NCBI GenBank assembly: GCA_036505535.1
Contig: DASXTI010000062.1
Coordinates: 124,585-188,584, forward strand
From: Thermoanaerobaculia bacterium
Lineage (GTDB): Bacteria > Acidobacteriota > Thermoanaerobaculia > UBA5066 > Gp7-AA6
Length of the DNA stretch: 64,000 nucleotides
Direction: 5' to 3'
A model generated the notes under the pieces. That model saw only the letters and a program-made list of their open reading frames with translations. It was not told the DNA's origin and did no database searches. The position numbers and the translations under genes are program-made. The stretch's first letter is position 1, and each line of letters opens with the position of its first letter. Below are positions 21,029 to 62,838 of this stretch, one piece after another.

Positions 21029-21050
21029 CAAGAGGGTCTCTCGTTTCGGG

Positions 21051-21120
21051 CCTCTGGTTCCTGGTTCTTCCTCTCATGACGACTCCTCCACCAGAAACCA
21101 GGGACCAGAAACCAGGAACC
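21051..21120. repeat. CTGGTT/AACCAG heptamer inverted array (hairpin) enclosing the DUF1684 start codon
   Basis: ggttcctggtt (21056-21066) pairs with aaccaggaacc (21110-21120). The right arm (accagaa accaggg accagaa accagga) encodes PETRDQKPGT of the downstream gene. Confidence 0.7.
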
Positions 21121-21948
21121 TCCATCTCTCGCGCATATATCGCCGAGATCGAGGCATGGCGCGCGAAACGCCTGGAGCGACTGCGCGCCGAAGACGGCTG
21201 GCCAACCGTCGTCGGTCTCTTCTGGCTGGAGGAGGGGGAAAACCCGGTCGGCAGCGCCTCCGGCAATCGAATCGTTCTGCCCGCGGGGAAGGCGCCTCCC
21301 GTCCTGGGCTCGATCGATCTCTCGCATGGTCGGGTGAGCCTTCGTGTCCGTCCCGGCGCGGACGTGCACGTAGATGGCAAGAGGGTCAAACAGGCGACGC
21401 TCTCCTCCGACGCGGACGGCCAACCGACGGTCGTGACCTATGGAACGCTTCGCTTCTATCTGATCGAGCGCGTGGGCCGTCTGGCCGTGCGCGTCAAGGA
21501 CAGCGCGAGCGAGGCGCGGCGCCGGTTCCACGGCCTCGACTCCTTTCCGATCGACCCGGCCTGGCGCCTCGAGGCGCGGTTCGAGCCCTACGATCCGCCG
21601 AATTCGATAGCTGTCCCCAACGTGCTCGGCGCCGTCGACTCGGAGAGATCGCCTGGGGCGATCGTCTTCGAGTACGGCGGCAAAGCGTACCGGCTCGACT
21701 CCGTGCTGGAGAAAGGCGAGATCGACTATTTCGTCATCTTCGGCGACCGCACGAATGGCGCGGAGACCTATGGAGCGGGACGCTTTCTCTACGTCTCCCC
21801 GCCCGCCGGCGGAAAGACCGTCATCGACTTCAACAAGGCCTACAACCCTCCCTGCGTCTTCACGCCCTATGCGACATGCCCGCTGCCGCCTCTGCAGAAC
21901 AAACTGCCGATTCGGGTCGAGGCCGGAGAGAAGGCGTATGAGCATTAG
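21076..21948 (+). CDS. DUF1684 domain protein
   Basis: Conserved DUF1684-like N-terminus (AYIAEIEAWRAKRLERLRAEDGWPTVVGLFWLEEG) and C-terminal CxF..Y..CPLPP motif. Confidence 0.75.
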   Translation: MTTPPPETRDQKPGTSISRAYIAEIEAWRAKRLERLRAEDGWPTVVGLFWLEEGENPVGSASGNRIVLPAGKAPPVLGSIDLSHGRVSLRVRPGADVHVDGKRVKQATLSSDADGQPTVVTYGTLRFYLIERVGRLAVRVKDSASEARRRFHGLDSFPIDPAWRLEARFEPYDPPNSIAVPNVLGAVDSERSPGAIVFEYGGKAYRLDSVLEKGEIDYFVIFGDRTNGAETYGAGRFLYVSPPAGGKTVIDFNKAYNPPCVFTPYATCPLPPLQNKLPIRVEAGEKAYEH

Positions 21949-22079
21949 TCGACAGTCGACAGTCGACAGTCGACAGTTGGGAGACGCAAGGCGGGCGAAA
22001 CATATAAGTAACTACTTATATGTTAGGCACCTCCGGCTATCGACTGTTGACTCTAGACTGTTGACTCTTGCCTCCCAAC
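21949..22079. repeat. composite convergent-terminator element: 4x GTCGACA tandem, AT palindrome CATATAAGTA-ac-TACTTATATG (22001-22022), inverted GTCAACAG copies
   Basis: Tandem tcgacag x4 at 21949-21977. Downstream revcomp partner cgactgttgactctagactgttgactc, with ttgggag/ctcccaa outer stem. AT palindrome copy 2 sits in the loop. Confidence 0.8.
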
Positions 22080-39064: not shown

Positions 39065-39829
39065 ATGCCGGCCATCGAGTCGCCGTCCAATCCTCTGATC
39101 CGGGAGATCGTGCGCCGCCTCGAAGAGAAGACGCATCTCTTACTCGAGGGGGAGAAAACGATACTGGACGCCGTGGGGGCGGGGATCCCGCTCGATTGTG
39201 TCCTCTACGACGCGAGTATTCGCCCGGGCCGGCTCGCGGCGCTGACTTCCGCTCACCCTCGCCTCGTTTCGCGCGCGGTGCTCGAGCGCCTTGCCGACTC
39301 GCACACGCCGCAACACCTTCTGGCCGTGGCCCGCCGACGCGACGTTCCCGTCGCGGAGATCCTGGCGCGCCCCGGACCCATCGTGTTCCTCTTCGGCATT
39401 CAGGATCCCGGCAACCTCGGCGCTATCGTCCGGGTTGCGGAGGCGGCAGGCGGCGCCGGGGTCCTGGGGGCTCCCGGAACGGCCGATTTCTTTCATCCAC
39501 GCGCCATTCGCGCAAGCGCCGGCAGCGCCCTCCGCATACCCGTCTCCGGGCGCGTCTCTTTCGAGCCCTTCGCGGCGGACGCGAAGGCCGCGAGCCGTCC
39601 CATTTGCGGCGCCGTGGCGGAGGGAGGCGAAGATCCCTTCGAAGGGCCTCTCTCACCGGCTTCCGTCCTCGTCGTCGGCGCCGAGGGCTTCGGCCTTCCC
39701 GCCGGCGCGTATCGATACCTCGACCGGAAGCTGACGATCCCGATGCGAGAGCCTGTCGACTCGCTCAACGCCGCCGTGGCAGTGGCGTTGCTGCTGTACT
39801 CGCCGGCGCTGCGTAAACAGGAGAATTGA
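39065..39829 (+). CDS. SpoU/TrmH-family RNA 2'-O-methyltransferase
   Basis: SPOUT motifs (VFLFGIQDPGNLGAIVRVAEAAG, LVVGAEGFGL, DSLNAAVAVALLLY). Confidence 0.8.
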   Translation: MPAIESPSNPLIREIVRRLEEKTHLLLEGEKTILDAVGAGIPLDCVLYDASIRPGRLAALTSAHPRLVSRAVLERLADSHTPQHLLAVARRRDVPVAEILARPGPIVFLFGIQDPGNLGAIVRVAEAAGGAGVLGAPGTADFFHPRAIRASAGSALRIPVSGRVSFEPFAADAKAASRPICGAVAEGGEDPFEGPLSPASVLVVGAEGFGLPAGAYRYLDRKLTIPMREPVDSLNAAVAVALLLYSPALRKQEN

Positions 39830-39909
39830 AGATTGATGATTGAAGATTAACGATTGAAGGTCAATGGTCTCGCCCCAATCGACAATCGTCAATCGGCAAT
39901 CGTCAATTC
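39823..39909. repeat. GATTG-core heptamer inverted array (5x NGATTGA then 5x CAATCGN)
   Basis: gaattga agattga tgattga agattaa cgattga ...loop... caatcga caatcgt caatcgg caatcgt caattc. Starts within the trmH stop codon. Confidence 0.8.
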
Positions 39910-42395: not shown

Positions 42396-42493
42396 GAATT
42401 GGCGATTGCCGATTGGTGATTGGTGATTGCCGATAGACACGGTCGATCGTCTCAATCACAAATCACAAATCACCAATCTCAAATCTCCAATCC
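42396..42493. repeat. GATTG-core heptamer inverted array (5x GATTGNN then 6x NNNAATC)
   Basis: attggc gattgcc gattggt gattggt gattgcc ...loop... ctcaatc acaaatc acaaatc accaatc tcaaatc tccaatc. Confidence 0.8.
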
Positions 42494-42520
42494 CCTAGGT
42501 GCCGGGCTCCGCCTGCTACC

Positions 42521-43448: not shown

Positions 43449-43515
43449 GGTTTCTGGTTCCTGGTCTCTGGTTACTGGTTGAAGAGAGAGAACCAGAAAC
43501 CAGAAACAAGAAACC
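43449..43515. repeat. CTGGTT-core heptamer inverted array (4x NNNCTGG then 3x AACCAGA)
   Basis: tttctgg ttcctgg tctctgg ttactgg tt ...gaagagagag... aaccaga aaccaga aacaaga aacc. Between convergent genes. Confidence 0.8.
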
Positions 43516-43519
43516 CTTT

Positions 43520-48296: not shown

Positions 48297-48600
48297 CAGG
48301 GCCGATGAGCACCTCGTAATGCGTCACGTTCGGCTCGAGCTCCAAAAGGAAGGCGGTATCCTCCGGATAATAGCGCGCGCGCTCGATCTCCTCGCCGGCA
48401 AACGTCCGGATCGCGTCGGCCGACTCCCAGAGCGAGACGAGCAGAAAGTGTGCGACCTCCCCCTCCCGCCGCTGGAGCACGTAGACGCCACGGTTTCCGG
48501 GCGTCGCTCGGTAGTCGGGGACCCCGGTCTTCTCCAGATAGCGAGCGTAGTCGGCGGCTTTGGCCACGGGCACCGCGCCGTGCCACAAGCGAGCGATCAT
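48289..48600 (-). CDS. small ABM-like (antibiotic biosynthesis monooxygenase fold) protein
   Basis: ~100-aa ferredoxin-like pattern (MIARLWHGAV...FLLVSLWESADAIRTFAGEE). ATGA overlap with ybgC-like gene. The upstream 100 codons were rejected. Confidence 0.5.
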   Translation of the reverse strand: MIARLWHGAVPVAKAADYARYLEKTGVPDYRATPGNRGVYVLQRREGEVAHFLLVSLWESADAIRTFAGEEIERARYYPEDTAFLLELEPNVTHYEVLIGPDI

Positions 48601-49043
48601 GGAGCCTCCCATCGGTTCACGCCTCGGAACGACTCGAGCGTCCGGAGGACGGTGGCATCCCCGCGCCGGGGTCGGCCGTCCGGATCGGTGAAGACGTGGC
48701 GGCTGGCGCCGTCGGCGAGGAGATCGCCGGCCGGATTGCGGATTTCGTAGGCGAACGTGCATCCCCGGCTCGAAAGCTCCCTCATGCGCGTGAGGATCCG
48801 GATTAAGTCGTCGTAGCTCGACGTCCGCCGGAACGCGCACTCCACACGGGTGACCGGAATCAATAGACCCGATCGCTCCATCTCCGCGTACGGCGCCCCC
48901 GCCGCCCGGCACCACTCGGTGCGCCCGATCTCGAACCAGATCAAATAGTGGGCGTGATAGACGATTCCCATCTGGTCCGTTTCGGAGTAGCGCACGCGCA
49001 GGTTCGTCTCGACGACGCGCGAGACTTCGGGCTCATGTCTCAT
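48597..49043 (-). CDS. YbgC/4HBT-family acyl-CoA thioesterase
   Basis: Hotdog fold with ETDQMGIVYHAHYLIWFE motif. Confidence 0.8.
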   Translation of the reverse strand: MRHEPEVSRVVETNLRVRYSETDQMGIVYHAHYLIWFEIGRTEWCRAAGAPYAEMERSGLLIPVTRVECAFRRTSSYDDLIRILTRMRELSSRGCTFAYEIRNPAGDLLADGASRHVFTDPDGRPRRGDATVLRTLESFRGVNRWEAP

Positions 49044-49074
49044 GTCTCAGGTCCAAGGCTCCGTCAAGCGCGAG

Positions 49075-55349: not shown

Positions 55350-57190
55350 CAGAGCCTCGGGAGCACTTCCAGATTCAGCCGAGCGGAGCCCGAGACCGGA
55401 ACCGGCTGCTCGATCGAGTCGGCCTGCAGCCGGAGATAACCGAGGTCCGGTGTTCCGTCGCCGGGCCCGCGGTCGCGCAGGAGCGCCGCCCGGGTCGGCG
55501 GCAACGCGGCGAGCGGCTCTCCGTTGACGACCGCGCCCGGCGCGCTCCGGTAAACCAGAAGGTTGAGCGAGTTGGGCGGCCTTACGCGCGCCAGGAAGTC
55601 GAGCACCTGATCGAGAGAGTGCGGATCCGGGGGATAGAGGGCGAGGTCATAGGCGGTGGCCGCGTTGCCGTCGCCGACGAACACCGTCAACGGGCCCGGT
55701 GGTGCGTCCGAAGGGACACGAAGGGTCATCACGACGCGCCGCGGCCCTCCCCGGAAGTCCTCCAGATCCACCCACACGGGTACGTTTTCTCCCGGTAGGA
55801 CCTTCTCCTTCTGCGCCTCGACGTGCACGACGCGCGCGCTCTGCAGCCGGTCCGAGTGAGCGATCTCGACGTCGACCGACTGGATAGGAAGATCTCGAAA
55901 TTCGTTCGCCATGAGGTAGTTCGTCAGCAGAGCCACGGAGCTGACCGCTTCTTCGCGCGCCGATAGGCCCGAGAAGACCGAGTCCCAGCGCACCGTCCGC
56001 TCCGGAGTGCGAATCGATGATTTCCACACGATCGTGCGCTCGCCCGCGCGTTTCTCCAGGGTTGTCAAGACGTTGTCGGTCGCGACGGCGACGAGGATGG
56101 GCGTGAGCATCGAATTGTGGACGACCTCGAAGCGGAACGTCTGTGTCGGGAAGTCCTCCGAGGTCATTCGGACCGTGACCGGCACCATCGTCGGGGGCCT
56201 GCCGAAGCTGCCGAGAATGCCCGTGGAACGATCCTGGGAGACCGAGCCGAGAACCGAGCCGGTAGTGGAGAACTTGAAAGAGCGATAGAGCGACGGCAGG
56301 ACCGTCAGGACGTCGGCGCTTGCCATCGGCATATCGACCGGCCCCATGGAGAGGAAGGGATGGCCGAATGCGAGAAGCGAGTTGCCCTCGACCCAGGTAA
56401 CGGTGCCGGTCGCGGAAAGAACCATGTCTCCTGAAAGAAGGACCGCCGCGACGGCGGAGCCCGGCTCGAGACGCGATTCGTTCGGCGTGACGACTTCTGG
56501 CGCGGCCGGAGTCGAAGCGCCGGATGGGGTCACCATCCAGCCGGCCGCTTCGGCGATCCGCCCGAAGAGACGGCCGGGCTCGATCGCGCCGGAAAGAGAG
56601 ACGGGAAGAGGCAGGGGGGCCGGGCCCGACGTCGCCGGCTCGCCTCGAAACGCCTTGAGCAATTCTTCGAACGGCTCGCGAAAACGAAAGTCGCGGAAAG
56701 CCGTGGTGAAGGCGGCCGTCCGCGCCGCCGCGCCGCCCATCGGAACCGGAGGGGAGGCCGGCGCTTTCCGGATGTCGAGCATGCTCTGAATCGGCGTGAT
56801 TCCGCAGATCGCTTCGCGTGAGAAGGGCCAGCCGTAGGCCAGAGCTCCGACGAGCTTCCCGTCGACGTAGATCGGGCTTCCGCTCATGCCGGCGATGATT
56901 CCCGTGCGGTCGATGGCGTCGGCGAGGATTCGAGCGAGAATCAGGTCCTGTTTGGGCGCATAGCTCTTCAGTAGCCCGACGATCTCGACATCGAACCGCT
57001 GGACTCCTTTCCCGTCTCCGAGATCCGAGAGGCCGTAGCCTTTCATTCCCGGAGTGATCTCGCTGGCGGGAAGGATCTCGGTCGGCCGCGCGAAAGCGAT
57101 GGAGGCGGATGCGCCGAGCGCGACCGCGAGAATCAACCGGCACACGGTTCGCCTCACCTTCGGGACAACGTCTTCGGTTCGCGGCTCCAT
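55346..57190 (-). CDS. S55 (SpoIVB-like) trypsin-fold serine peptidase, secreted
   Basis: Signal peptide. Catalytic-serine context GIIAGMSGSPIYVDGKLVGALAYG. ATGA overlap with the downstream propeller gene. Confidence 0.65.
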   Translation of the reverse strand: MEPRTEDVVPKVRRTVCRLILAVALGASASIAFARPTEILPASEITPGMKGYGLSDLGDGKGVQRFDVEIVGLLKSYAPKQDLILARILADAIDRTGIIAGMSGSPIYVDGKLVGALAYGWPFSREAICGITPIQSMLDIRKAPASPPVPMGGAAARTAAFTTAFRDFRFREPFEELLKAFRGEPATSGPAPLPLPVSLSGAIEPGRLFGRIAEAAGWMVTPSGASTPAAPEVVTPNESRLEPGSAVAAVLLSGDMVLSATGTVTWVEGNSLLAFGHPFLSMGPVDMPMASADVLTVLPSLYRSFKFSTTGSVLGSVSQDRSTGILGSFGRPPTMVPVTVRMTSEDFPTQTFRFEVVHNSMLTPILVAVATDNVLTTLEKRAGERTIVWKSSIRTPERTVRWDSVFSGLSAREEAVSSVALLTNYLMANEFRDLPIQSVDVEIAHSDRLQSARVVHVEAQKEKVLPGENVPVWVDLEDFRGGPRRVVMTLRVPSDAPPGPLTVFVGDGNAATAYDLALYPPDPHSLDQVLDFLARVRPPNSLNLLVYRSAPGAVVNGEPLAALPPTRAALLRDRGPGDGTPDLGYLRLQADSIEQPVPVSGSARLNLEVLPRLW

Positions 57191-57232
57191 TCCCTTTGAC
57201 CCTCTCCGTACCCTATGTTACGGTCGAAACCA

Positions 57233-57973
57233 ATGCTGGCACTCGCCTTTCAGCCCGTCACCTCAGAAAACCTCCCCGGCCAGTCCTCGATCCTCTCCGC
57301 CTTCGGCGAGACGGGGACGACCGCGCGAGTCGTCCTGGGCATCTTGCTGCTGTTCTCTTTTATCTCCTGGGTGATCATTTTCGCCAAATTCATTCGGCTC
57401 CGGAGGGTCTCGCGCCAGTCGGCGAAGTTCGTCTCGTTCTTTCGGAAATCCAAGCGCTTCTCGGAGGTCAATACCTTCGCCGGGGATCTGGCCGACACGC
57501 CTTTGACGACCCTCTTCAAGGCGGGCTACGCAGAGCTCGACGCCCAGGTGAAGGCCAATCGCGCCGACGACGCTCCGACCACCGGCGGGGCACAGGGCAA
57601 GCTCTTGATCAAGAACATTTCTGGAATCGAGCGGGCTCTGGAGCGCGCGATCGGCGTGGAGATGTCGCGATTGACGCGACACATGACCTTCCTCGCCACG
57701 ACGGCGGCGGCCTGCCCGTTCATCGGTCTGTTCGGCACTGTCTGGGGAATTATGCAATCTTTTCGGGCAATTGGCCAGACCGGATCGACATCGATCGCGG
57801 CGGTCGCGCCCGGAATCTCGGAGGCCCTCATCAACACGGCCGCCGGCCTCGCGGCCGCGATTCCGGCGCTGATCTTCTATAACTACTTCATGGGAAAGGT
57901 CCGGGAACAGCGCGCGGGAATGGAGGACTTCTCCCTAGAGTTCATCAATCTGGCCGAGCGGAACTTTACGTAG
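57233..57973 (+). CDS. tolQ: Tol-Pal system protein TolQ
   Basis: MotA/TolQ/ExbB family with 3 TM helices. Synteny with tolR-tolA-tolB-pal-cpoB. Confidence 0.85.
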   Translation: MLALAFQPVTSENLPGQSSILSAFGETGTTARVVLGILLLFSFISWVIIFAKFIRLRRVSRQSAKFVSFFRKSKRFSEVNTFAGDLADTPLTTLFKAGYAELDAQVKANRADDAPTTGGAQGKLLIKNISGIERALERAIGVEMSRLTRHMTFLATTAAACPFIGLFGTVWGIMQSFRAIGQTGSTSIAAVAPGISEALINTAAGLAAAIPALIFYNYFMGKVREQRAGMEDFSLEFINLAERNFT

Positions 57974-57976
57974 GGC

Positions 57977-58068
57977 GCTCGTGAGTCGTAAATCATGGGT
58001 CATGGGTCATGAGGAGGTAAGCAATGAAGGACGGCTCTCGACTCACGACCCATAACTCACGACCCTCC
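57977..58068. repeat. CGTGAGT/CATGGGT heptamer inverted array between tolQ and tolR, containing SD plus 15-codon mini-ORF
   Basis: cgtgagt cgtaaat catgggt catgggt catgagg ...loop... revcomp partner ctcgactcacgacccataactcacgaccctcc. GAGGAGG (58011-58017) pairs with CCTCC (58064-58068). Mini-ORF ATG 58024..TAA 58071 encodes MKDGSRLTTHNSRPS. Confidence 0.75.
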
Positions 58069-58072
58069 TAAA

Positions 58073-58501
58073 ATGGCCTTCCAGCGTCAAACCGGCGACC
58101 CGTTCGACCACCTCGCGGACATCAACGTCACGCCTCTGGTCGATGTCATTCTCGTGCTGCTCATCATCTTCATGGTCACCGCGCCCATGCTTCACCAGGG
58201 CATCTCCGTCGCTCTTCCGAAGACCGCCACCACCAATCTCCGTTCCACCGTCGAAGACCCCATCGTCCTTTCGATCTCTCGCGACGGCCTCTACTACATC
58301 AACGAAACCCCCGTCGCCCGCGGGCTGCTCAAGGAGCGGCTGCGCGCCATTCTTCGCGGGCGCAGGGAGAAAGCCGTTCTGCTCAAGGCGGATCGGGGAC
58401 TCTCCTACGGCACTGTCATCGAGACCCTCGATCTGCTCAATCGGATGGGGATCGAAAGCCTCGGTCTGGTGACGGAGACGTCGGGGTCTTCCCGGAAGTG
58501 A
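58073..58501 (+). CDS. tolR: Tol-Pal system protein TolR
   Basis: ExbD/TolR family with single TM (VTPLVDVILVLLIIFMVT). No SD of its own; start 1 nt after mini-ORF stop (TAAAATG). Confidence 0.85.
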   Translation: MAFQRQTGDPFDHLADINVTPLVDVILVLLIIFMVTAPMLHQGISVALPKTATTNLRSTVEDPIVLSISRDGLYYINETPVARGLLKERLRAILRGRREKAVLLKADRGLSYGTVIETLDLLNRMGIESLGLVTETSGSSRK

Positions 58502-58603
58502 GGCCCGCGCGCTCGCAGGTTGTGAAAGAAGGCTGTGGGATAGCGTTACGAGCGCCGTGGGGTCAAATGCAAGAAGCCGCGACGACGGCGATGCGGCGGC
58601 ATC

Positions 58604-58650
58604 CCTCGCCGCCAAGGCGGGCTCGGGACCGAGGAGCGGCGAGGTTTTTT
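58604..58650 (+). terminator. canonical intrinsic terminator (9-bp GC stem + T6) in the tolR-tolA spacer
   Basis: cctcgccgc (58604-58612), 24-nt loop, gcggcgagg (58637-58645), then tttttt. Confidence 0.6.
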
Positions 58651-58827
58651 CAGCGGGCGCTCGACGCGCCCGACAGGAGCGGAGATGAGTAATTGGCCTA
58701 AGGGAGTCTGCAGGGCACTCGGCTCTGGCGTCAAAAACTCTCGGCCGCCGTTCGCGAAGGGAACGCCCGCGGCCGACGGCCACGCCCGCATCCATTTTTC
58801 CGCAGCCTGCTGCTAGGGTCGGGACTC

Positions 58828-59574
58828 ATGGACGTCGTCGGCAACATCCTGGCGGAACGACGCGCGGACCGATTCTCCTGGGCCCCGGCGACCCTGCTCG
58901 CCTTCCTGCTCCATGCCGGAATTCTGGCGGGCATCTTAGCGTCCGCCCTGGCGCGGCCGATGCGCTTTGCCGCGCCGCGCGCCGTTGCCGTCCGGCTGCT
59001 GCCGGCGGGCTCTCTTCGAGCCCCGGAGCCCGCCCGCTCGCAGCCCGCGCTTCCCGCCGCCGAGAAGCCGAAGATCGAAAAGCCGTCCGAAGAAGCGCCA
59101 CCTCCGTCGAAGAAGGCGGTGCTCTTACCGTCGAAGGAAGAGAAAAGGAAACCGACGCCTCCGCCCGTCAGCCGGCCCGGGCGCGCCGCGACGCCATCGG
59201 TTAGCCTCCCCTCGACAGGGGACGAGTCCTCCGGCGCGACGGCGGGGAGCGCGGCCGGCGCGGGCGGCACCGCCGGCATCGGAAGTCTGAGGCTCGACCA
59301 GGCCGACTTCAAGTATCCGGTCTACATCGAAAGGCTCGTGATGATCATTAGCCTCAACTGGTTCAAGCCCGCTCAGCAGGTCACAGTCAATCCGATCATC
59401 CACTTCCAGATTGAACGCGACGGCACCATCACCGATCCGAGAATCGTGACTTCGAGCGGTTTGCCCTTCGTGGACCGAGCGGCGTTGCGCGCCGTCCTCG
59501 CCTCCTCGCCGCTGCCTCCCCTTCCCGCCGAATACGGCGGCCCTCACCTGGGCATTCAGGTCGTGTTCGAGTGA
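58828..59574 (+). CDS. tolA: TolA (TonB-C-terminal-domain protein of the Tol system)
   Basis: N-terminal TM anchor, Pro/Ala/Lys-rich linker. C-terminal TonB_C-like domain (YPVYIERLVMIISLNW...). GTGA overlap with tolB start. Confidence 0.7.
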   Translation: MDVVGNILAERRADRFSWAPATLLAFLLHAGILAGILASALARPMRFAAPRAVAVRLLPAGSLRAPEPARSQPALPAAEKPKIEKPSEEAPPPSKKAVLLPSKEEKRKPTPPPVSRPGRAATPSVSLPSTGDESSGATAGSAAGAGGTAGIGSLRLDQADFKYPVYIERLVMIISLNWFKPAQQVTVNPIIHFQIERDGTITDPRIVTSSGLPFVDRAALRAVLASSPLPPLPAEYGGPHLGIQVVFE

Positions 59575-60905
59575 TCCGCCAGAGAAAATTGAGACGCCGA
59601 GTCCTCCAGATCGTCGCGATCGCCGTGACGTCACTGGCCGGCGTTCCCGCCGCCGCGCAGACGCCGCCGGCCCCCACACCGCGGCCCGCCGAAGACATCC
59701 AGATCGTCATCCGTGGCGGCAAGGAACGCCGCCTGGCAGTCGCGGTCCCGGCGCTCTACGCCCCGGGCTCGGCCGCGCTCCAGGCGAAGGTGGCCGATCC
59801 CTTCACGGCGACTCTGAGGTCCGATCTCGAGTACGCGGGCGCCTTCTCGGTCGCCGAGCCCGCGCACTATCCGTCGGGTTATCGCGATCCCACCACTCCC
59901 GAGGCGGCAGACCGGTGGCTCGGAACCGGTGCGGAAGTTCTCGTCGACACGCGCGGCGAGGTTGCCGGCGACCGCGTTGCCGTCGAGGCGAGGATCTGGG
60001 ACCTGAAGTCTCGTAAGCTCATCCTCGGCCGGCGCTATTCGGGCGGCGCCTCCTACGTGGATCGGATCGCCCACACGCTCGCTAACGACCTGGTGAAGTA
60101 CTTCACCGGAAAACCGGGCGCGTTTCTTTCCACGATCCTCTTCGTCACCGAGCAAGGAGGAACCAAGGAAATCTCGGCGATGGACTTCGACGGGCGCAAT
60201 ACTCGCCAGCTCACGTCGCATCGATCGATTGCAATCAACCCGACCGGCGCGGGCGGAAAGGTAGTGTACACCTCTTACGTGCGCCTGTTCCCGCAGATCT
60301 GGATCATGAGCATGGATGGCAGCGAAAAGAAGGAGATCCCAACAGGGGTCGAGCTCAATGCGTCGCCGTCCCTGTCTTCCGACGGCAGCCAGATCGTCTT
60401 TGCCGGCTCGGCGAAGGGCAACGCCGACATATACGCGATCGGTGTCAACGGCGGGTCTCTGCGCCGCTTGACCAACAGCCGCGCTCTCGAGGCCTCCCCG
60501 GCCTGGTCTCCGACGGGGCGCCAGATTCTCTACACGTCGGACTTGACCGGCACGCCTCAGATCTATGTCATGGACGCCGAAGGATCGGGCTCCCGGCGCA
60601 TCACCTTCGCCGGCAACTGGAATGACGAAGCCTCCTGGTCACCCGACGGCGCGCGGATCGCCTTTGCCTGCCGCAACGAGGGCGACTTCAACATCTGCGT
60701 CATGGACTTCGCGACCGGACAGACGGTCCAGGTGACCTCCGAGGGCTCCAATGGTCATCCTTCCTGGTCGCCCGACGGCGAAAAGATCGTTTACTCATCG
60801 CGGCGCGGCGGCTCGACTCAGATCTACTCGATGGACGCGAGCGGACAGAATAAACGGCAGTTGACCGACGGAGGCAATCACTATCAGCCCGTCTGGCTTC
60901 CTTGA
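59571..60905 (+). CDS. tolB: Tol-Pal system beta-propeller protein TolB
   Basis: N-terminal TolB_N domain plus repeated PD40 blades (SPAWSPTGRQILYTSD, EASWSPDGARIAF, HPSWSPDGEKIVYSS). Confidence 0.9.
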   Translation: MIRQRKLRRRVLQIVAIAVTSLAGVPAAAQTPPAPTPRPAEDIQIVIRGGKERRLAVAVPALYAPGSAALQAKVADPFTATLRSDLEYAGAFSVAEPAHYPSGYRDPTTPEAADRWLGTGAEVLVDTRGEVAGDRVAVEARIWDLKSRKLILGRRYSGGASYVDRIAHTLANDLVKYFTGKPGAFLSTILFVTEQGGTKEISAMDFDGRNTRQLTSHRSIAINPTGAGGKVVYTSYVRLFPQIWIMSMDGSEKKEIPTGVELNASPSLSSDGSQIVFAGSAKGNADIYAIGVNGGSLRRLTNSRALEASPAWSPTGRQILYTSDLTGTPQIYVMDAEGSGSRRITFAGNWNDEASWSPDGARIAFACRNEGDFNICVMDFATGQTVQVTSEGSNGHPSWSPDGEKIVYSSRRGGSTQIYSMDASGQNKRQLTDGGNHYQPVWLP

Positions 60906-61015: not shown

Positions 61016-61582
61016 ATGAAAAGGAACCTCATCACGCTCACGCTGCTCCCCCTCATGGCCATGACGATGCTTGTCCTGTCCGCTGCCTGCAAGAAAAAGG
61101 CACCGACGACCGCGGCCGAAGCCCGTCCTCCCGTGACGACCGCGAGGCCGGGGGAAACGACGGTGGCGCCCCCCGTCGCGCCCGGGCCCCGCACGGACAT
61201 CGAGGCGGAAGTTCTCTCGATGGACATCGATGCACTCAACAAGAAAGGATACTTGACCGACGCGTTCTTCGACTTCGACCAGTCGGATCTGCGTGAAGAC
61301 GCCCGCTCGGCGCTCTCCGCCGACGCGCAATGGCTCAAGAAGTACTCCTCCGTCCAGGTTCTGGTCGAAGGGCACTGCGACGAGCGCGGCACGGCCGCTT
61401 ACAATCTTTCTCTCGGGGATCGCCGGGCGAACGCCGTCAAGGAGTATTTGACCTCGTTGGGACTCGAGGGCTCTCGGCTGCGCACCGTCTCCTACGGCAA
61501 GGAGCGCCCGTTCTGCACGCAATCGAACGAGAGTTGCTGGCAGCAGAATCGACGGGGCCACATCGTTATCACGGCCAAGTAG
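61016..61582 (+). CDS. pal: peptidoglycan-associated lipoprotein (OmpA family)
   Basis: Lipoprotein signal LVLSAAC. OmpA-C domain (FFDFDQSDL, VEGHCDERGTAAYNLSLGDRRANAV). Confidence 0.9.
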   Translation: MKRNLITLTLLPLMAMTMLVLSAACKKKAPTTAAEARPPVTTARPGETTVAPPVAPGPRTDIEAEVLSMDIDALNKKGYLTDAFFDFDQSDLREDARSALSADAQWLKKYSSVQVLVEGHCDERGTAAYNLSLGDRRANAVKEYLTSLGLEGSRLRTVSYGKERPFCTQSNESCWQQNRRGHIVITAK

Positions 61583-61587
61583 CCTTG

Positions 61588-62418
61588 ACCGCCTCGCAGC
61601 GTCTCGGACTCGCCGGCCTCCTGGTGGCGGCGCTTGTGGCGGGCGCCGCCTGCGTTTCCTCGGACGACATCGAGGGTCTGCACCGGCAGATGAACGACAT
61701 CCAGAAGCAGATCCAGGCGGTCGAGAAGAAGTCTTCGAGCAAGGAGGAGGTCGAGAAGCTCAACCAGAACGTGGCCACGCAGACCCAGCAGTTGCTCAAG
61801 TCCAACGCCGACACGGCGGTCAAGTTGGGCGAGCTGACGACCAAGATGGAGCAGCTCGAGGCCAAGCTCGAAGACACCAACCGCCGGCTCTCTCAGCTCT
61901 CCCAGCAGATTGCGGAGACGCAGGGCGACCTGCTCCGGCTCCGCAACGCCGGTGGCGGTGGTTCCGGCTCACCCGGCCCGGCGCCCGCTTCCCCTCCCTC
62001 CGGCGGAGCGCCCCGCCCGTCTCAGAGCGCACCGTCTCCAACCGAGCTCTATGACACGGCCTACGGCGACTACGCCAAAGGGCGTTACGCGCTCGCCATC
62101 CAGGGCTTCGAGGACTATCTGGCGAGCTACCCCTCGACGGACCTCTCCGATAACGCCCAGTACTGGATCGGCGAGTCACACTTCGCGCAGAAGAAATACC
62201 AGGACGCGATCGCGGACTTCGAGAAGCTTCTCAAGCAGTGGCCCGCGAGCGACAAGGCCGCCGCCGCGTTGTTGAAGAAGGGATACGCGCTGCTCGAGCT
62301 CGGCCAGAAAGCGGAAGCCGTCGTCCAGCTCCAGTACGCCATCCACGAGTTCCCGACCTCCGAGGAAGCGCGGCTGGCTCGCGCCAAGCTGAAGTCGATC
62401 GGAGTGGAAACGAAATAA
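61588..62418 (+). CDS. cpoB: CpoB/YbgF (Tol-Pal system coiled-coil + TPR protein)
   Basis: Signal sequence, coiled-coil (QKQIQAVEKK...LEAKLEDTNRRLSQL). C-terminal TPR (YALAIQGFEDYLASYP...YWIGESHF). Start is uncertain: TTG 61588 after the pal stop; track ORF start 61330 overlaps pal. Confidence 0.7.
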   Translation, partial: TASQRLGLAGLLVAALVAGAACVSSDDIEGLHRQMNDIQKQIQAVEKKSSSKEEVEKLNQNVATQTQQLLKSNADTAVKLGELTTKMEQLEAKLEDTNRRLSQLSQQIAETQGDLLRLRNAGGGGSGSPGPAPASPPSGGAPRPSQSAPSPTELYDTAYGDYAKGRYALAIQGFEDYLASYPSTDLSDNAQYWIGESHFAQKKYQDAIADFEKLLKQWPASDKAAAALLKKGYALLELGQKAEAVVQLQYAIHEFPTSEEARLARAKLKSIGVETK

Positions 62419-62482
62419 GCGTAAGACGTGAGAGGTAAGACGTAAGACGGAGCGGGTCTCGTCTCACGTTTTGCGTCACGAC
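62419..62482. repeat. GTAAGAC-core heptamer inverted array downstream of cpoB
   Basis: gtaagac gtgagag gtaagac gtaagac gg ...agcgg... gtctcgtctcacgttttgcgtcacgac. Confidence 0.75.
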
Positions 62483-62518: not shown

Positions 62519-62773
62519 ATGGCCAACATCAAGTCCGCCGAGAAGCGGATCCGCACGTCTGGCAAGAAGCGCACACGCAACAAGGCTCGTGTCTCGCGCC
62601 TTCGGACCGCGATCAAGAAATACGGGCAGACCGATCCGGCGAGGAAGGCCGATGCCCTTGCGGGAACCCACGCGGAGATCGACCGCGCACTCCGCAAAGG
62701 CGTGATCCACCGCAACGCCGCGGCCCGGTACAAGAGCCGGCTGGCGAAGAAGGCGGCAGTCAGTAGTCAGTAG
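62519..62773 (+). CDS. rpsT: 30S ribosomal protein S20
   Basis: MANIKSAEKRIRTSGKKRTRNKA... typical bS20 N-terminus. AAGGAGAAAG SD. Confidence 0.9.
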   Translation: MANIKSAEKRIRTSGKKRTRNKARVSRLRTAIKKYGQTDPARKADALAGTHAEIDRALRKGVIHRNAAARYKSRLAKKAAVSSQ

Positions 62774-62826
62774 TCAGTCGTCGGTAGTCGTGAGCCTCTC
62801 ACGACGACTACCAACTACCAACCACC
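62761..62826. terminator. CAGTAGT-core heptamer hairpin overlapping the rpsT 3' end
   Basis: cagtagt cagtagt cagtcgt cggtagt cgtgag cc ctcacgacgactaccaactaccaaccacc. Tight stem gtcgtgag/ctcacgac with 2-nt loop. The repeat encodes the last residues (VSSQ) and the TAG stop of S20. Confidence 0.75.
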
Positions 62827-62838
62827 GAATGCCGACTC

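Follow-up and report, generated by a model that had tools for sequence, protein, structure and literature searches.

Mini-ORFs that close at the tolR start codon in hypervariable tolQ-tolR spacers of Thermoanaerobaculia: a possible translational relay through a heptamer hairpin

Our subject is the 99-nucleotide (nt) spacer between tolQ and tolR in a 64 kb stretch of a Thermoanaerobaculia (Acidobacteriota) genome of 66% G+C, which we call the window. This spacer folds into a hairpin that contains a short open reading frame (ORF), here ORF-B, preceded by its own Shine-Dalgarno sequence (SD) and ending 1 nt before the tolR start codon. The reading that we favor, at a probability of about 45%, is that the SD and AUG at the apex of the hairpin would load ribosomes, which would translate ORF-B, terminate 1 nt before the tolR AUG and in part re-initiate there. 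An earlier note on this DNA had proposed that the hairpin sequesters the SD and acts as a translation-dependent switch on tolR. As a specific claim this is only half right. Behind it stands a comparative pattern, a frame left open across the spacer and closed at the tolR start, which is real and experimentally tractable.

Reading the sequence bears out every position in the earlier note. The SD-like GAGGAGG (58011..58017, + strand) lies at the apical end of the left arm of the hairpin with a gap of 6 nt to ATG 58024-58026, and AGGAGGT matches the canonical SD, the complement of the anti-SD, over 7 nt. ORF-B (MKDGSRLTTHNSRPS followed by TAA; 15 codons, 58024..58071, + strand) begins within the apical loop and continues along the right arm to TAA 58069-58071, after which a single A precedes the tolR ATG at 58073. 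Given its co-directional neighbor and a stop 1 nt before that neighbor's start, ORF-B stands to tolR as the upstream member of a termination-reinitiation pair does, a shared transcript being assumed. Two further small ORFs that are absent from the earlier note share the spacer. ORF-A, with 24 codons (57981..58055, + strand), starts at a GTG 7 nt past the tolQ stop, in the position of the conserved (G)GTGTC start of relatives, and ends at a TAA 17 nt before the tolR ATG in a frame other than that of ORF-B. The second, ATG AGG AGG TAA (58009..58020, + strand), has three codons in the frame of ORF-B and closes that frame 3 nt before ATG 58024.

The tandem-heptamer hairpin described in the earlier note is real, as folding, inverted repeats, Tandem Repeats Finder (TRF) and the pair table all concur. 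It is an imperfect structure of about 31 pairs that takes in the entire spacer (57971..58070, + strand), with the UAGGG of the tolQ stop paired at the base with the CCCUA just 5' of the tolR AUG. The minimum free energy (MFE) of -42.1 kcal/mol for 57960-58090 is only moderately better than that of shuffled sequences (z = -1.9, with 8/200 shuffles as good), and the stretch from stop through spacer to start has a folding energy of -38.8 kcal/mol. The left arm (57992..58014, + strand), delimited by TRF and a heptamer-array scan, is built of TCATGGG repeated 2.7 times (57993-58011 by TRF) and degenerates into CATGAGG. The right arm holds ACTCACGACCC as a direct repeat of two copies 14 nt apart (58041..58065, + strand), which MAFFT aligns as homologous to the right arms of L096, L147/L068 and L008 (loci of relatives carry L numbers throughout). 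The stable structure begins at the tolQ stop codon and the spacer exceeds the 25 nt required, which is the location described for a ribosome-termination structure (RTS). Rfam gave no family match over the whole window at gathering thresholds, and on 57850-58200 at E <= 10 nothing but chance miRNA/snoRNA-like matches to the hairpin; a scan of 57000-58900 for promoters and terminators found nothing in the tolQ-tolR spacer, which is without a U-tract.

The sequestering of the SD did not hold up in the fold predictions. The predicted pairing is confined to G-A-G 58011-58013, which form a weak helix of 3 bp at the apex, and the loop contains the AUG; the ensemble gives unpaired probabilities of 0.08-0.11 for the GAG, about 0.75 for 58014-58015 and at least 0.85 for the AUG. 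The stem that the earlier note drew between the SD and the CCCTCCT upstream of tolR is likewise disfavored by the model, in which the MFE fold pairs CCCUC 58064-58068 with UAGGG 57971-57975 of the tolQ stop region instead. The summed probability of pairs between the SD and CCUCCU is 1.6e-5 and forcing them costs +14.5 kcal/mol. This pairing becomes the predicted fold only with the left arm blocked, for example by a ribosome, and it would then mask only the SD of ORF-B itself. CCTCCT (58063..58068, + strand) belongs to the base of the hairpin and corresponds in the window to the pyrimidine-rich YCCTAR that precedes the tolR ATG in relatives with short spacers.

How much weight the SD deserves depends on how common SDs are in this genome. 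Among window genes, 10/53 have an SD of at least 5 nt ahead of their first candidate start codon, compared with 5.7% of internal start-like codons, and for at least 6 nt the figures are 2/53 and 2.1%. Because SDs are this rare, an SD-less tolR is ordinary and the 7-nt SD of ORF-B is unusual; tolQ, tolR and the TolA-like gene downstream all go without. The earlier note was correct that no SD lies upstream of tolR, but with SDs of at least 5 nt in only those 10 of the 53 genes this is not diagnostic. We also asked how often the arrangement arises by chance, using 20,000 dinucleotide shuffles of the spacer. An ATG-initiated ORF of at least 5 codons ending between -4 and +6 nt from the tolR ATG appeared in 10% of shuffles, in 0.6% when an SD of at least 5 nt was also demanded, and in 0.13% with an SD of at least 6 nt. 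The combination of SD, ATG and abutting stop is improbable for a single spacer, yet not negligible for a reader who goes through about 50 intergenic regions.

Searches based on TolQ returned 80 Thermoanaerobaculia/Acidobacteriota genomes and 80 metagenome contigs with TolQ 77-94% identical, giving 160 usable junctions with 126 distinct spacers; the 71 distinct long spacers were collapsed by similarity into 42 clusters. The spacer is hypervariable, with lengths from 0 to 181 nt and complete sequence turnover. Three contigs from the Joint Genome Institute (JGI) have an identical TolR, a spacer 100% identical to that of the window and an identical ORF-B, and the window's apex and right-arm sequences were not found elsewhere among 163 loci. 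About 45 relatives carry at this junction a heptamer hairpin made of an unrelated heptamer. In nine deeper relatives (L050, L060, L063, L079, L144, L145, L150, L154 and L163) the junction holds an element resembling a miniature inverted-repeat transposable element (MITE), with terminal inverted repeats GGGGTCAGGT...ACCTGACCCC and an inner palindrome CCACTTCGCG/CGCGAAGTGG, which is nested or duplicated in L079, L150 and L154. The junction looks like an insertion hot spot. The longest spacer, 181 nt in L153, is composed of a 12-nt array of CAGTTTGAGCGA repeated four times, a GC-rich palindrome, and five copies of AAATTCG ending at a TGA that overlaps the tolR ATG.

Despite this turnover, the ends of the frames are anything but random. 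A terminal stop, by which we mean one lying between -4 and +6 nt from the tolR ATG, occurs in 40/71 long spacers, where shuffles give 17.8 +/- 3.6, and in 30/44 short spacers, where they give 10.4 +/- 2.4. ORFs that end in this interval are found in 36/71 long spacers (8.2 +/- 2.5 in shuffles), and for ORFs of at least 9 codons the stops pile up at -4 to +7. After clustering, 27/42 clusters have a terminal stop, and the frame it closes has the longest backward open run in 19.5 of these 27 (ties shared) when 9 would be expected (P ~1e-4). Frames open across the rest of the spacer number 22/32 among frames with a terminal stop, as compared with 20/94 among those without one (Fisher 2e-6), and the association holds in close and deep subclades alike. 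When only a fixed 45-nt core is considered, the real ATG gives an odds ratio of 5.7 (p = 0.003) and mock anchors 18-24 nt upstream give about 1. The same core on the reverse strand gives an odds ratio of 0.14 (p = 0.02) at shift 0, which is the inverse association, and nothing significant at shifts 6-18. An artefact of composition or of the hairpins themselves can be excluded, since the reverse strand is equally open and the association vanishes at the mock anchors. A general depletion of stops on the coding strand was ruled out as well, there being 122 stop trinucleotides on the forward strand and 91 on the reverse, with open frames in 27/42 and 30/42 clusters respectively.

The individual spacers show how this closing is maintained. 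In the close subclade all 11 of 11 clusters have a terminal stop, and the ORF mostly begins 0-21 nt past the tolQ stop, often at the GTG of GGTGTC. L096 and L010 have chains of ORFs, in which GTG TCx TGA is followed by a second ORF and then by a stop 0-1 nt before the ATG. Between hairpins homologous to that of the window, aligned with MAFFT, indels of 1-3 nt are compensated such that the stop stays 0-1 nt from the ATG; in L096 a 2-nt indel restores the stop 1 nt before the ATG even though homologous bases are read in a different frame. In a family of four relatives (L020, L093, L120 and L121) the spacers measure 95, 108, 116 and 117 nt, and all are spanned by an ORF. The layout of the window is repeated independently in L066, with GGAG, an ATG in the loop, an ORF that extends along the right arm and a stop that overlaps the ATG of tolR, and L141 and L142 have GGAG and a loop ATG, but a stop 7 nt from the ATG and thus outside the -4 to +6 interval. 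When we demand an SD of at least 5 nt, an ATG, 10 or more codons and a stop beside tolR, only the window, L014 and L096 qualify among the 71 distinct long spacers. The peptide of ORF-B is absent from the nearest relatives, L096 reading the homologous bases in another frame. A conserved small protein was considered and ruled out, as endings resembling 'SRLTTHNSR' arise from related CGACTNN/ACTCACN heptamers read with a 7-residue period.

Short spacers give a simpler view of the same junction. Relatives with 88-92% TolQ identity mostly have spacers of 17-26 nt, with a pyrimidine-rich YCCTAG/TGA/TAA directly before the ATG; examples read GTG TCT CCC TAG agc atg, GTG TCC TGA... and GTG TCT CTC CGT TAA atg. 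The motif (G)GTGTC is conserved 5-8 nt past the tolQ stop (L001-L035 and L084-L120; in L007, for example, tag GCCGCGGTGTCTCCCTAGAGC atg). Its GTG is in frame with a stop beside the tolR ATG in 17/23 distinct short spacers, where it opens mini-ORFs 2-7 codons long. About ten short spacers have lost this GTG by mutation to GGG or GCG (GGGGTC, GGCGTC), in some cases with no stop either. The motif could be a start codon or a nucleic-acid motif. The window is atypical when compared with this layout. Its ORF-A, at the ancestral GTG position, stops 17 nt short of tolR, a distance reported to nearly abolish re-initiation (PMC10666635), and because the frame of ORF-B is closed just upstream (the open run is 48 nt) the window departs from the usual arrangement of an ORF beginning beside the tolQ stop.

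The earlier note had suggested looking for a conserved SD, short ORF and abutting stop in related genomes. What recurs, in statistical terms and across the 42 long-spacer clusters, is the short ORF with its stop at the tolR ATG, while neither the SD nor the peptide is conserved. The clusters divide, with 15/42 having neither a spacer ORF nor an SD at tolR and no terminal stop, and 27/42 having the terminal stop, which mostly closes a spanning ORF.

Under the reading we favor, the stable hairpin directly after the tolQ stop would limit direct re-initiation by ribosomes that terminate on tolQ, and ribosomes would load at the exposed apical SD and AUG of ORF-B. Those on ORF-A, or those terminating on tolQ, may open the left arm and thereby aid apical loading, and some may arrive via ORF-A. 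Translation of ORF-B would then melt the 3' arm and end 1 nt before the tolR AUG, where a fraction of the terminating ribosomes would re-initiate on the SD-less gene. The peptide itself would be irrelevant, selection in the clade acting to keep a geometry of an open frame across the spacer that is closed at the tolR start. Efficient re-initiation is known to need a stop that overlaps the start or is only a few nt away from it, and a gap of about 20 nt nearly abolishes it (PMC6728339, PMC10666635); a stable structure just past a stop codon shields the gene that follows from re-initiation (bioRxiv 10.1101/2020.02.10.941153). The data show the features in the sequence, the accessibility of the apex as predicted and the geometry across the clade. 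We infer the translation of ORF-B, the re-initiation and an effect on the TolQ:TolR ratio; that the hairpin sets this ratio is speculation. The termination-reinitiation idea of the earlier note gains comparative support in its general form, from the association of open frames with terminal stops and from the compensated indels, and its switch made of SD and hairpin is unsupported.

A wider version of this reading is tentative, and we would put the odds against it. In this version the hand-over of ribosomes from tolQ to tolR in Thermoanaerobaculia survives in a repeat-invaded spacer by way of relay ORFs that are conserved in geometry only, starting at or near the tolQ stop or at their own SD and stopping so as to abut the tolR AUG. 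Heptamer hairpins and MITE-like inserts would be tolerated only where they leave one frame open up to a stop at the start codon, and the window would be a derived solution in which an apical SD and AUG have replaced the broken 5' half of the relay.

Several observations weigh against the relay through ORF-B. The exact ORF, SD and hairpin are confined to the window and the three identical contigs; of the closest relatives, at 94% TolQ identity, L084 and L086 carry another hairpin (GGTTTCT/AGAAACC) and L085 a spacer of 26 nt. In 15/42 clusters, mostly at 77-82% TolQ identity, the hairpins are filled with stops, and tolR has neither a terminal stop before it nor an SD; tolR can therefore be expressed without a relay. 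As most genes here have no SD, SD-independent initiation of tolR de novo is plausible. Within the window, the frame of ORF-B is closed at 58018-58020, 3 nt upstream of its ATG, and opens again only with the SD and ATG of ORF-B. A decayed copy of the heptamer (CATGAGG AGG) is one way to read GAGGAGG, and by our own count from the sequence the G+C at third codon positions (GC3) of ORF-B is 0.67, compared with about 0.8 for genes. The other co-directional heptamer hairpins of the window have no comparable ORF, although these are only 3-4 cases. Additionally, the clusters are possibly not fully independent because of shared deeper ancestry, and assemblies of tandem repeats in metagenome-assembled genomes may contain errors.

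Looking at the alternatives can help to place these observations. It is possible, though we think it rather unlikely, that ORF-B is fortuitous, that the hairpin is a fast-evolving neutral or selfish repeat and that tolR is initiated de novo, with the terminal stop being an old insulating stop that bars stray ribosomes from entering tolR out of frame and has no role in delivering them. Such a by-product would explain why the SD, start and peptide are not conserved in a genome of low SD use, why deep-clade relatives have neither ORF nor SD, and why open frames are as common on the reverse strand (30/42) as on the forward strand (27/42). The TCATGGG heptamer yields ATGs automatically, and the hairpin also has a purine-rich run. 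The pyrimidine-rich YCCTAG or YCCTAA precedes the tolR ATG even in hairpin-free spacers of 17-26 nt, from which it follows that the TAA-A-ATG of the window predates its hairpin. What a by-product does not account for is the joint occurrence of SD, ATG and abutting stop, at 0.1-0.6% by chance, and the selection on frame ends that is visible in the link between open frames and terminal stops and in the compensated indels. Because the positions of frame ends appear to be under selection, the spacer frames are probably translated, and the translation of any ORF whose stop lies 1 nt before an AUG is physically expected to bring some re-initiation (PMC10666635).

The hairpin could also be the functional unit with the ORF being irrelevant, as a ribosome-termination structure, a protector of the RNA 3' end or a processing site after tolQ, and it would in any of these roles lower TolR relative to TolQ through translational uncoupling or differential mRNA decay, in the manner of repetitive extragenic palindromic (REP) elements inside operons. 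We consider this improbable. The TolQ:TolR complex is 5:2 and less TolR is needed, the hairpin begins at the tolQ stop codon as an RTS does, about 45 relatives have an unrelated heptamer hairpin at the same junction, and at least 8 window hairpins lie within about 25 nt of stop codons with 10/10 arrays outside gene interiors; all of these would suit a structural role. The closing of frames at the tolR ATG, specific to position and strand, is left unexplained by it, spacers of 0-26 nt suffice in close relatives, and the hairpin has no U-tract, no terminator-like site and an energy z of only -1.9. A very improbable variant would have the post-termination ribosome cross the base of the refolded helix to the tolR AUG, with no need of a spacer ORF. 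The base helix from U57971-A58070 to G57975-U58066 does bring both sites to within 2 nt, and many relatives have hairpins or MITE-like inserts flush with both codons (L060, L061 and L141, for example), but a ribosome on the tolQ stop must already have opened that helix base and the frame statistics would be unexplained. We know of no bacterial precedent for such a shunt besides the bypassing in T4 gene 60, which needs matched take-off and landing codons; a bypass of that type from ACG-TAG to the ACG at 58059 was tried and rejected, as it lands out of frame with tolR. More improbable still is a regulatory leader peptide of the classical kind, which would use attenuation or ribosome arrest to sense the supply of a metabolite or amino acid and to switch tolR. 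We disfavor it even though a short ORF does lie upstream of a gene within structured RNA. There is no terminator/anti-terminator pair and no tolR SD to mask, and the ORF has no codon runs, no conserved peptide and no match to an Rfam leader family. With three defining features tested and none found, the spacer is not a leader-peptide attenuator.

The tolQ-tolR hairpin, which is lineage-specific, is one of at least 8 tandem-heptamer hairpins in the window, each with its own heptamer. The others lie at 21050-21120, 21945-22070, 39825-39908, 42397-42497, 43449-43516, 62416-62480 and 62754-62828. In each, one arm repeats a heptamer peculiar to the locus in tandem and the other its reverse complement, without a U-tract or an Rfam match. 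No more than about 25 nt separates the beginning of any of the 8 from a stop codon, whether the junction is convergent or co-directional. A scan of the window placed 10/10 heptamer arrays of at least 21 nt outside gene interiors. The window hairpins belong to a genome-wide class that sits just after stop codons. The left-arm pattern of the tolQ-tolR hairpin is single-copy in the 64 kb at up to 3 mismatches, and a dispersed REP/MITE repeat family was ruled out on this ground together with the restriction of the apex and right-arm patterns to the three identical contigs. Our literature searches on heptamer-armed hairpins in Acidobacteria found no description of arms built from locus-specific tandem heptamers, and the class is apparently undescribed in Acidobacteriota. 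Apical runs resembling an SD or anti-SD occur in two other hairpins, CACCTCC in the one that begins near 21947 (within 21990-22045) and CTCCTCC in that at 21050-21120 (within 21075-21095). GGAGG/CCTCC blocks thus recur in heptamer hairpins, and one such block may be what resembles an SD in the tolQ-tolR hairpin. On the minus strand, GAGACAT repeated 2-3 times at 49030-49054 overlaps the start-codon region of a minus-strand ORF (48597-49043); unlike the hairpins this array is a direct repeat only, with no inverted partner.

The assignment of the genes themselves rests on the ORF list and best NCBIfam matches. These are TIGR02796 for tolQ (57215..57973, + strand, stop TAG 57971-57973; 196 bits, cut-off 221) and TIGR02801 for tolR (58073..58501, + strand; 122 bits, cut-off 127), followed by TolA-like/TonB_C for the TolA-like gene (58828-59574), TolB for tolB (59571-60905; 339 bits, cut-off 343) and Pal for pal (61016-61582; 139 bits, cut-off 125). 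The order tolQ-tolR-tolA-tolB-pal is canonical and the Pfam context on identical metagenome contigs is concordant, including a MotA_ExbB assignment for the tolQ product. The best family matches and the gene order thus place these genes in a Tol-Pal operon, with three scores (tolQ, tolR and TolB) slightly below the curated cut-offs. An exact-protein look-up of TolQ returned no record, because public calls begin 6 codons later, the public tolQ gene call starting at ATG 57233 (246 aa). A tolR start mis-assigned upstream was excluded, as the same start codon is aligned in 160/160 relatives and every spacer has an in-frame stop. The spacer between tolR and the TolA-like gene (58502-58827) is 326 nt, which is long for such a compact operon, and it has no heptamer hairpin.

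If the relay through ORF-B is real, it would be a natural counterpart of engineered bicistronic leaders, in which a throw-away hairpin ORF feeds ribosomes to an SD-less gene, and the gene being fed would encode one subunit of a membrane motor of fixed stoichiometry. Should ORF-B prove to be untranslated, all that is left is a chance ORF in one heptamer hairpin. The wider rule suggested by the relatives is that coupling can survive the insertion of repeats because selection maintains a frame that is open as far as the start codon of the next gene. A relay across the clade would be natural evidence of selection on ORFs of non-coding length purely as ribosome conveyors, and the embedded hairpins could be tunable brakes on subunit stoichiometry. 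A literature search on tolQ-tolR translational coupling brought up no relay ORFs described for a tol operon. A 1996 paper in J. Bacteriol. reportedly dealt with control of E. coli tolR by tolQ at the level of translation.

Among known systems, the bicistronic design that goes under the name of Mutalik et al. 2013 and natural leader cistrons are said to use a short, efficiently initiated ORF that unwinds structure and ends at the start of a gene. The window resembles them in having a short ORF that ends at the start of the gene of interest and would unwind local structure. It differs in that their second gene keeps an SD inside the leader ORF, whereas tolR has none and the leader lies in a hairpin of about 31 pairs. 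Attenuators of the trpL/ermCL type also place a short upstream ORF in a structured leader, but the terminator/anti-terminator, masked downstream SD, regulatory codons and conserved peptide are all missing here. Palindromes of the REP/bacterial interspersed mosaic element (BIME) and MITE types occur inside operons, and Rickettsia palindromic elements are inserted in frame. The likeness is that palindromic inserts are tolerated when translation is unbroken; unlike these elements, the window hairpin is single-copy and has no dispersed sequence family. The cyanobacterial short tandemly repeated repetitive (STRR) sequences and the TAACTGA repeats of Beggiatoaceae are intergenic 7-nt tandem units that often end beside start codons and for which a role in translation has been suggested (PMC4679880). 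They reuse one heptamer genome-wide as direct repeats, with only 1 inverted set in 170 (PMC4679880), while here each locus has its own heptamer in inverted arrays that form a hairpin, and the window hairpins do not belong with them.

Two systems come closer in position. An RTS (Chemla et al. 2020, bioRxiv 10.1101/2020.02.10.941153) is likewise a stem-loop right after a stop codon at a junction of more than 25 nt, and is proposed to insulate the downstream gene from re-initiation. It was defined as a statistical folding signal of about 40 nt (bioRxiv 10.1101/2020.02.10.941153), unlike the tolQ-tolR spacer, which is a tandem-heptamer hairpin of about 100 nt with an SD and ORF of its own. Termination-reinitiation coupling (Huber et al. 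2019, PMC6728339; 2023, PMC10666635) shares with the window a stop 1 nt before an SD-less co-directional gene, and genes that encode subunits of one heteromeric complex, here TolQ/TolR; in the relatives the stop lies -1 to +6 nt from the start. The difference is that the upstream partner is here a tiny non-conserved ORF in an inserted hairpin and not the neighboring gene, and therefore the coupling, if real, works through a relay.

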